DNA from: Rickettsiales bacterium | Lineage (GTDB): Bacteria; Pseudomonadota; Alphaproteobacteria; Rickettsiales; UBA1997 | Reading direction: 5' to 3' | Assembly: GCA_947455845.1 (NCBI GenBank) | Contig: CANGQE010000001.1 | Span: 1-30,642 of the forward strand | DNA length: 30,642 nucleotides | In this document: piece after piece, positions 2,097 through 2,907 of the stretch | Layout: the number at the start of each line of letters is the position of its first letter | How positions within the stretch are numbered: position 1 is the first letter of the stretch | Program-made: the position numbers and the translations under genes | Notes under the pieces: model-generated | Told to the model about the DNA's origin: nothing | What the model saw: the letters and a program-made list of their open reading frames with translations, nothing else | Database searches by the model: none

Positions 2097-2907
2097 ATTT
2101 TTGAAATTTTAAGTAAATTCGTGTAATCAGAGCAGCGAGCAGAAAGCATACCAACATTGAAACCAAAGTATCACCAAAAAAATGCGCCCCTTTGGCCATT
2201 TGGTAGAAACCCATGATCCAACCAAGGATAATGGCACTTATCAAGCCTAAACAGCGCTGTGATCTTCTTCGCAAAGCAAAAAATAAAATCATTAGAGTAA
2301 AGCCTGTAACCGAGTGACCGGCGGGAAAGCATTGAGCTTTTTTAGCTTGGTGAAAACTTGAAGGATAATGTTCAAAAATTCGGATGTAAGGCTTGTCCCC
2401 GCCGTATATTTCAAGCTGGGTAGGGCAATAAACGTTGGTAAATTTTTTGATATTGCCGGCGATTAAAGGTATGAAGGAAAAGCCGAAGAAGATTAGAAGG
2501 AGGCGGTGGCGATGGCGGATAAGGAAATTTGATTTTGGAATAGATCCTGAAACAAGTTCAGGATGACGGAGAGGGGATAATTGAGAGTTACTGTAGCGCA
2601 AAGCTAAAGCATTGTCATCCTGAACTTGTTTCAGGATCTGTTTCGAATCTCTAAACCCCAAAATAACTCCAAGCAAACATCCCGTAACCCCAACACCGAA
2701 TAAAATCTTCGGTAATTTATAAAAAATAAATTTTTTGACGGGCTCATTTTTATCAACCAGCCAAGACTTACTTTCGAAATCAAATAAATAATTTTGTACT
2801 TCAATGTCAAAATTACCGTAATTAATCCAGCACAAAGCCAATGCTATCAAAACTAGATCAAGGATGATCCAAAAATCAATTTTACTTAAAATTTTTGAGT
2901 TTCTCAT
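2089..2907 (-). CDS. PAP2-family membrane phosphatase containing an in-frame 33-aa repeat-derived insertion
   Basis: [16 protein letters not shown] and GAHFFGD motifs with TM segments; start moved to ATG 2907 (MRNSK), since the longer ORF lies within the upstream gene; ATGACTAA overlap with thiC. Confidence 0.85.
2542..2639. repeat. Family B inverted-repeat doublet inside the PAP2 CDS
   Basis: Perfect 26-bp arms at 2542-2567 and 2614-2639 (GTCATCCTGAACTTGTTTCAGGATCT), identical to the intergenic copies at 11023-11117 and 23233-23322. Confidence 0.95.

Follow-up and report, generated by a model that had tools for sequence, protein, structure and literature searches.

How can a gene for a membrane enzyme carry, in the middle of its coding sequence, a palindromic repeat of the kind that also lies between genes, and still encode a credible enzyme? 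The question is raised by a PAP2-family phosphatase gene in the stretch of DNA analysed here, a window of 30,642 nucleotides that is one whole contig of a Rickettsiales MAG (G000; 1.31 Mb in 188 contigs, 39% GC, rated 76% complete). The answer we favour, with a probability of about 0.88, is that a non-autonomous REP dimer has inserted in frame into the DNA for a cytoplasmic loop of the PAP2 protein, that the insertion is tolerated and that the cell probably goes on making an active enzyme. The element and its surroundings are as follows, in coordinates of the window.

2089-2952, minus strand: ORF of the PAP2-family membrane phosphatase (PF01569); the likely start is a conserved Met at 2907, giving 272 aa.
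2882-4825, minus strand: upstream neighbour, a sulfatase-superfamily membrane transferase (LtaS / phosphoglycerol-transferase-like), its end overlapping the start of the PAP2 ORF.
258-2096, minus strand: downstream neighbour, thiC, its start overlapping the PAP2 stop by 8 nt.
2539-2642, no strand: complete repeat element, in which two CGTC-type REP hairpins stand inverted to each other around a unique spacer; recognised by arm identity to two other copies, consensus ends, translation and hairpin fold.
2541-2568, minus strand: REP unit 1, with tag CGTC at 2565-2568, 8-bp stem/5-nt loop/8-bp stem at 2544-2564 and tail CTA at 2541-2543; it encodes RHPELVSGS.
2569-2612, no strand: spacer between the REP units, encoding 15 residues; very similar spacers occur in in-frame copies on contigs C77 and C21.
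2613-2640, plus strand: REP unit 2, with tag TGTC at 2613-2616, hairpin at 2617-2637 and tail CTG at 2638-2640; the coding strand reads Q-ILKQVQDD.
2640, minus strand: stop-removing position; the consensus plus-strand A makes a coding TAG, and the G found here makes CAG (Gln), the first codon of the insert.
11024-11116, no strand: intergenic dimer of the ATCCTGAACTTGTTTCAGGAT family, between the ORFs 8978-10849 and 11138-12463.
23232-23323, no strand: intergenic dimer of the ATCCTGAACTTGTTTCAGGAT family, between the ORFs 22522-23196 and 23344-24183.

Within the PAP2 ORF the 21-nt core ATCCTGAACTTGTTTCAGGAT occurs at 2544-2564 (minus strand) and 2617-2637 (plus strand), and it is paired again, identically, at 11029-11049/11091-11111 and 23237-23257/23298-23318. 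These six matches, three inverted pairs, are all that the window contains, against 0 expected from 100 dinucleotide-preserving shuffles, and over 26-34 nt the arms of the PAP2 copy are the same as those of the two intergenic dimers. A preliminary description of this DNA had reported a doublet inside the PAP2 coding sequence whose arms match two intergenic copies, and this is borne out: both other copies lie between ORFs. The PAP2 element runs AATAG, core, GAC, 44-nt spacer, TGTC, inverted core, CTGTT, about 100 bases in all, built as an inverted dimer of the 21-nt hairpin unit. Translation likewise agrees with the earlier claim that 2542-2640 (minus strand) comprises 99 nt in the frame of the gene, free of stops, encoding 33 residues, which are numbered 105-137 in the longest ORF and, when the count begins at the conserved Met16 (position 2907), 90-122, the numbers first given. 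We place the bounds of the element further out, at 2539-2642, because conservation among the 90 dimers of the genome reaches AATAG...CTATT. The sole departure of the PAP2 copy from this outer consensus is the G for A at 2640, by which an in-frame TAG becomes CAG. In the mRNA the dimer can fold into a perfect 26-bp stem (-51.8 kcal/mol, z -9.85).

The genome contains 235 units of the ATCCTGAACTTGTTTCAGGAT family (up to 3 mismatches, mostly exact), and 0 matches were obtained in a control in which the pattern was read backwards. In 180 of the 235 the units are joined as 90 inverted dimers, tags facing inward, which span 61-118 nt from first to last core base (modes 73, 72, 82, 76 and 94) and are conserved for five bases past the core on each side and no further. 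The tag is CGTC in 104 and TGTC in 105 of the 235 units; the 8-bp stem, ATCCTGAA / TTCAGGAT, begins A-T then T-A; the 5-nt loop is CTTGT in 194 of 307 generic YGTC 8/5/8 hairpins; and the 3-nt tail is CTA in 178 units, CTG in 42 and CCA in only 5. A sister family of 67 units with the stem ACCCCGCA (the CCCCGCA stem) has the same geometry, its stem differing by compensated changes, with TGTC as tag and CCA as tail in 52 of 67. Searching the repeats against Rfam gave no matching family. A target-site duplication was sought and only TA was seen, which is part of the palindromic end ATAG/CTAT and inseparable from the element.

Several other arrangements of these units were observed. Sister CGTC-type dimers (stems ACCCCGCA and ACCCCGTC) are intergenic in the window at 5355-5454, 17049-17178, 21181-21314 and 29361-29418. 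Solo hairpins with AATAG and CTATT ends and no inner tag, at C58:348-368, C87:3590-3610, C98:4944-4964, C106:1205-1225 and C69:4445-4465, look like dimers that have collapsed through recombination between their two arms. A hybrid dimer at C54:7593-7721 combines a ATCCTGAA-family arm, with the start of the spacer as in the PAP2 copy, and a unit of the CCCCGCA family. We do not claim that the elements are built for coding compatibility, as stop-free spacers account for 85 of 118 readings and for 72 +/- 4.9 when shuffled, a modest excess.

The host gene is a member of a large family and a somewhat atypical one. The ORF matches Pfam PF01569 at E 5.7e-17, with 62.1 bits against a cut-off of 27.2, and the protein matches NCBIfam NF028538 (PAP2 lipid A phosphatase) at E 7.6e-39 over residues 14-266 of 272, that is over its full length, with 133.6 bits, below the equivalog cut-off of 275. 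We would class it as a lipid-A-phosphatase-like member of the PAP2 superfamily. The Met at 2907 is nearly invariant (Met1 of the trimmed orthologue alignment), and Lys154, the histidine of PAGH198, H242 and D246 (Met16 numbering) are present and invariant in an alignment of 11 orthologues. The canonical PAP2 motifs are KX6RP and SRX5HX3D, each with an arginine; at the positions of these arginines all 11 aligned orthologues, with an insert or with none, have Cys161 and Gln236. The earlier statement that the catalytic motifs are intact is thus right for K154, H198 and H242/D246, and wrong for the two canonical arginines. The protein belongs to a divergent PAP2 subfamily, and this divergence is independent of the insert.

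Since the start of thiC overlaps the PAP2 stop, the element is probably located in the middle of an operon (sulfatase-family gene, PAP2, thiC). The nearest curated family being PAP2 lipid A phosphatase and the upstream neighbour a membrane transferase, the sulfatase-superfamily transferase and PAP2 together look like a module for envelope lipid modification. The order transferase-then-PAP2 recalls pairs named in NCBIfam, and the match to PAP2_near_MCR1 has an E of 4.8e-22 and is far under the cut-off. The overlap of thiC with the PAP2 stop leaves no space for a TPP riboswitch.

Where the added residues would lie in the protein can be judged from hydropathy, which gives six TM segments, and from the distribution of Lys and Arg, which are concentrated at the N-terminus (3), in the insert loop (9, with the flanking RDSK and RHRHR), in loop 213-218 (4) and at the C-terminus. 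By the positive-inside rule these four regions would be cytoplasmic, and hydropathy, this rule and the known PAP2 topology together place the insert in the first cytoplasmic loop, between TM2 and TM3. With that topology the PAP2 motifs (K154...C161-P162, PAGH198 and H242...D246) fall in loops of the opposite face, which accords with the fact that in membrane PAP2 enzymes (PgpB-type structures) the active site faces outward. Because the phosphatase motifs are on the other face of the membrane, the insert would be distant from the active site if this predicted topology is correct. An AlphaFold2 model computed with 11 orthologue sequences has a mean pLDDT of 72 and draws the insert as a prolonged TM2 helix followed by coil, at pLDDT 50-75. 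A Foldseek search of the model against the PDB returned nothing at E <= 0.001 (the best PAP2 match, 5jki, has E 0.94), and a profile search of PDB sequences with PAP2 gave no match. As the model is mediocre and there is no significant PDB match, the structure adds little and the topology rests on hydropathy.

If the loop is an insertion, orthologues from related genomes should in part be without it. The first search for orthologues covered 40 relatives, 24 of them of the same genus, and was followed by alignments of 12 and then 35 orthologues; the relatives with orthologous loci are freshwater-lake MAGs filed as Rickettsiales or Alphaproteobacteria. Orthologues of the first search match the query in two pieces, residues 1 to ~102 and ~140 to 287, from a single open frame of 238-276 residues. 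Between the beginning of TM2 and the AGNIK motif at the close of TM3, 28 of the 35 orthologues have 45-61 residues and no insert, and G000 has 91 residues, so that the gap of about 33 aa which the preliminary description had proposed to look for is present. The six other orthologues are expanded in the same loop by REP-derived peptides of three other kinds, whose units we confirmed in the DNA: a single RHPELVSGS unit in L014 and L016 and two such units in tandem in L015; a sister-family dimer (GPRSKCGVTT...RHPPFTAGS) in L043 and L018; and another sister-family variant in L022.

Masking the loop, we built a maximum-likelihood tree of the PAP2 orthologues. The sister of its single-unit clade is the insert-free L017 (support 100/100), the clade with the sister-family dimer is sister to the insert-free L019 and then L020 (100/99, 99/94), and L022 pairs with the insert-free L042 (80/87), while G000 stands alone in a polytomy. 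Given that different elements adjoin insert-free sisters, with strong support for two of the three types, there have most plausibly been several independent gains, and the PAP2 loop appears to be a recurrent, permissive insertion site, the simplest reason for the recurrence being that the loop tolerates extra residues. The statement that selfish DNA has recently created a new loop is supported by the abundant palindromic family and by the insert-free orthologues; 'recently', however, can be retained only in the sense of after the split from all sampled species, the age of the insertion being loosely bounded because among the genomes compared no genome or allele of the same species was seen without the insert. 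The 21-nt core is identical between species whose PAP2 proteins are only ~60% identical, and this identity, taken with the patchy spread of the repeat, points either to a hairpin under strong constraint or to a repeat that has passed from one lineage to another.

The PAP2 copy is no isolated case: at least 16 genes of this genome carry such an insert, 16 of the 90 dimers (18%) being situated within long ORFs that have Pfam domains before and after it. The other hosts include a 1,107-residue UvrD/AddA-like helicase-nuclease, PriA, UvrC, SdhA, an acyl-CoA synthetase-type enzyme, a Mur-ligase family protein, TilS, RibD, a Methyltransf_28 protein, an AFG1-like ATPase and a TsaD/TsaB-family protein.

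Loci L058-L072, on contigs C18, C4, C97, C48, C85, C157, C8, C121, C174, C77, C103, C71, C21 and C60: the fifteen genic dimers besides that of PAP2.

Four further dimers, situated just 5' of pntB, nadA, dxr and a class IV aminotransferase gene, are probably extragenic. All 16 genic dimers are read in one and the same frame, ILKQVQDD...RHPELVSGS, because TGA occurs in the two other frames of the first arm and in one of the second. All 16 are also of the length class 1 mod 3, which joins two open frames, against 59 of the 90 dimers overall. The consensus end AATAG places a TAG directly before the first codon of the ILKQVQDD frame, and it is here that the genic copies depart from the rest: their gene-upstream end has CAG in 15 and GAG in 1, whereas 11 of their 16 downstream ends and 128 of the 148 non-genic ends retain TAG. 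TAG at 0 of 16 gene-upstream ends versus 139 of 164 other ends gives a Fisher p of 3.5e-12. This shows selection for read-through of the genic copies: in genes either the stop-less variants alone endure, or the stop disappears shortly after insertion. The stop-removal signature is the best available evidence that the genes with such copies, PAP2 included, are still translated across the element.

How long such an insert can persist is indicated by SdhA, in which an in-frame dimer lies at about residue 450 (G000 C18:8692-8765, locus L061; orthologues L077-L088). At the same site G015 has a diverged copy (ILNQVRDD...RHPELDSGS), G012 a longer copy and G008 an insert from another family, and SdhA orthologues across the genus range from 575 to 687 residues. 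The insert common to G000 and G015 suggests an insertion older than their split and inherited through speciation, and the SdhA site is a second insertion hot spot.

What might move the element was sought in the genome and its relatives. There is one Y1 (IS200/RAYT-like) transposase gene, the only PF01797 gene of the genome; its best NCBIfam match is REP-associated tyrosine transposase, with 52 bits against a cut-off of 80.

Contig C84:1-2346 (locus L013), gene at 1-876, minus strand: Y1/RAYT-like gene of at least 292 aa, ending at the contig end.

This gene is flanked by another repeat, GTGTCGAGAGT(A/C)GAGATTTGACACC, with one copy at ~970-1005 and three in tandem at 1840-1985; the CGTC family is represented on the same contig by half a unit, at 2019-2039, 1.1 kb from the gene. 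Units of the repeat number 234, 207, 145, 43, 24, 18 and 9 in seven same-genus genomes, four such genomes have a single match and 14 of 24 have none; one genome of another family (G037) has 22 units, and the repeat was not found in 15 of 16 other-family genomes of the same order. The Y1/RAYT-like gene and the repeat do not co-vary among these relatives: G012 has 145 units and no PF01797 match at 97% completeness, and several genomes have the gene and zero units. We reject the C84 gene as mobiliser, as it does not co-vary with the repeat and is flanked by a different one. DDE_Tnp_1 and rve genes are present in the genome, and an IS630-type DDE_3 gene was not found there. Insertion sequences with matching terminal repeats were not found either, the sole clear-ended one (on C52) having unrelated terminal repeats, nor was a transposase found between arms of the ATCCTGAACTTGTTTCAGGAT family in this 76% complete genome. 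Within the same compass no cognate transposase for the repeat was identified.

To which known class does the repeat belong? Classical REPINs carry a GTAG tag and are extragenic, and they are reportedly mobilised by RAYT tyrosine transposases, as described by Bertels and Rainey in 2011. The repeat resembles them in its two inverted REP hairpins with a short spacer, its folding into a long hairpin, its hundreds of copies and the one RAYT-like gene of the genome. It is unlike them in its tag, CGTC or TGTC and not GTAG, and in that the RAYT-like gene is flanked by another repeat; the GTAG tag and the cognate, co-distributed RAYT gene that would mark a REPIN/RAYT system were not found here.

A closer counterpart is provided by the CGTC-tagged REPs (families CGTC-1 to -4) defined by Di Nocera, De Gregorio and Rocco in 2013 (PMC3733652). 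These have an unpaired CGTC (or TGTC/CCTC) tag at one hairpin end, an 8-9 bp stem with complementary A/T pairs at positions one and two, a 4-5 nt loop (the 8-bp stem with 5-nt loop is the geometry of family CGTC-2) and a short unpaired 3-nt tail, mostly CCA (PMC3733652). They occur mainly as inverted (head-to-head) dimers with 20-100-bp spacers, do not flank a transposase gene and predominate in Alphaproteobacteria, R. conorii RPE-6 being CGTC-1 and RPE-4 CGTC-4; intragenic dimers encode 20-30 residues, and replication and repair genes host many of the intragenic REPs (PMC3733652). The unit described here has the tag, the 8-bp stem with the first two pairs, the 5-nt loop and a tail of 3 nt, forms inverted dimers (with 'head' read as the tagged end) and does not flank a transposase gene. 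The likeness extends to genic copies in replication and repair genes, represented here by PriA, UvrC and the UvrD/AddA-like helicase. The tail differs, being mostly CTA or CTG here and CCA in only 5 of 235 units, although the sister family has CCA in 52 of 67, and the host is an uncultured freshwater Rickettsiales genus outside the coverage of PMC3733652. The unit fits the CGTC-tagged REPs, an assignment made by their structural definition and not by published consensus sequences.

The other counterpart is RPE-1 of Ogata et al. 2000, a palindromic element of ~150 bp which, in the account given of it in PMC10969869, lies in frame and compatibly with function in many unrelated housekeeping genes, contributes a conserved peptide in one frame and has no known transposase. 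The 16 genic dimers likewise form a palindromic repeat in frame in unrelated protein genes with one reading frame. RPE-1 is unlike the present element in its length and in not being two short tagged hairpins, the likeness being one of description and not of sequence, and whereas about half of the RPE copies from three families are genic, the proportion here is 18% of dimers. The comparison with RPEs and CGTC-tagged REPs with which the locus was first presented is apt, as the unit has the structure by which the latter are defined (PMC3733652). Searching the literature in full text for palindromic elements of freshwater Rickettsiales MAGs yielded no paper in which all terms occur.

Taken together these observations suggest the following course. 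The segment 2539-2642 is a non-autonomous palindromic repeat, REPIN-like in build and behaving like a Rickettsia palindromic element, which inserted into the DNA for the first cytoplasmic loop (TM2-TM3) of a PAP2 lipid-phosphatase homologue. The copy would have survived because its arms have one stop-free frame only, its net length is a multiple of three and the consensus TAG ahead of that frame is CAG here, so that it can be read as Q-ILKQVQDD...RHPELVSGS. The phosphatase motifs would be on one face of the membrane and the 33-35 added residues on the other, and for that reason the enzyme is probably made and active. We infer translation through the insert, retained activity and the mode of movement from the sequences compared, and the insert is most likely tolerated baggage and not a functional gain. 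Counting against this explanation, the 26-bp stem in the mRNA might impede translation or become a target for a double-strand RNase.

The whole course would be void if the repeat had been stitched into the PAP2 contig during assembly, as might happen in a MAG of 188 contigs. Comparison of 2150-3000 with Logan contigs of runs from four studies shows that these contigs break at the arms of the family's repeats, as contigs will where a repeat exceeds the word length of the assembler. Nevertheless one contig of 2,795 nt, from a different study (run X5), agrees with 2590-3000 at all positions but one and thereby connects the unique spacer to the right arm and to 360 nt of the gene's 5' part, and pieces of run X1 tile 2518-3000. 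The left junction (2518-2578) is covered by unitigs of only 47-61 nt and 2150-2497 by no contig, a gap from which nothing follows; no contig joining the two flanks without the element was found in the four runs, which is weak evidence as contigs drop rare variants. Mis-assembly is very unlikely, because the insert keeps the frame exactly and has the stop-removing change, and because 15 other genes, as well as MAGs of other projects, show the same behaviour. The long loop might instead be ancestral and lost in most lineages, or all the loop inserts might descend from one old insertion, as could be supposed from the three further insert types in the same loop, the place of G000 in the polytomy and a faint likeness between its spacer (NALA...) and the residues before the L014 unit (SNALQA). 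The inserts differ, however, in repeat family and architecture and have insert-free sisters at 100/100 and 100/99 (80/87 for the third type), the G000 arms equal the genome-wide consensus although in the flanking protein identity with the nearest orthologues is only ~60%, and copies that lie in unrelated genes on C77 and C21 have spacers much like this one. We regard an ancestral loop or a single old insertion as distinctly improbable.

Accepting the insertion as real and derived, one may ask whether it silenced PAP2, leaving a young pseudogene, or a gene limited in expression by the hairpin, that has not yet acquired stops. The very stable mRNA stem is what such silencing would predict, and PAP2, not found with our query in 11 of 24 same-genus genomes, may be dispensable; PAP2 was matched in no RNA run, which is no evidence either way on expression. 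Yet to either side of the insert the ORF is undamaged, with every invariant residue of the family in place; CAG stands here for the consensus TAG, a loss of the stop common to all 16 genic copies and just what selection for read-through should leave behind; and the diverged SdhA insert common to G000 and G015 indicates that inserts persist in needed genes. We consider silencing unlikely. The opposite proposition is that the insert is kept because it is useful, the hairpin or peptide slowing translation between TM2 and TM3 or tuning expression of the operon of sulfatase-family gene, PAP2 and thiC. More generally, REP dimers might be selected repeatedly at the PAP2 TM2-TM3 and SdhA ~450 loops and modulate translation, membrane insertion or operon expression. 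Independent gains do recur in these same loops, and the structure is very stable and sits mid-operon, but a filter for permissive sites explains the recurrence, family, length and sequence differ between species, and most orthologues do well without an insert. Moreover, that only 16 of 90 dimers are genic in a mostly coding genome indicates removal of most genic insertions by selection. We give usefulness, in its local and its general form alike, a small chance; were it true, the lost terminal TAG would be the sign of a path by which a mobile element becomes a fixed part of a protein.

REP and RPE repeats inside genes are already documented, and the present locus involves no new kind of element or mechanism. 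What it adds is the reuse of the same loop by different REP types, the change from TAG to CAG or GAG in 16 of 16 genic copies and the presence of 18% of dimers in housekeeping genes. For annotation it is a warning: such inserts inflate loops and break assemblies, and are not to be taken as new domains. For biology it offers a natural example of selfish DNA adding a segment to a protein, with insert-free orthologues for comparison, and it extends the phenomenon of in-frame REPs and RPEs from pathogenic Rickettsia to an abundant uncultured genus of freshwater Rickettsiales.
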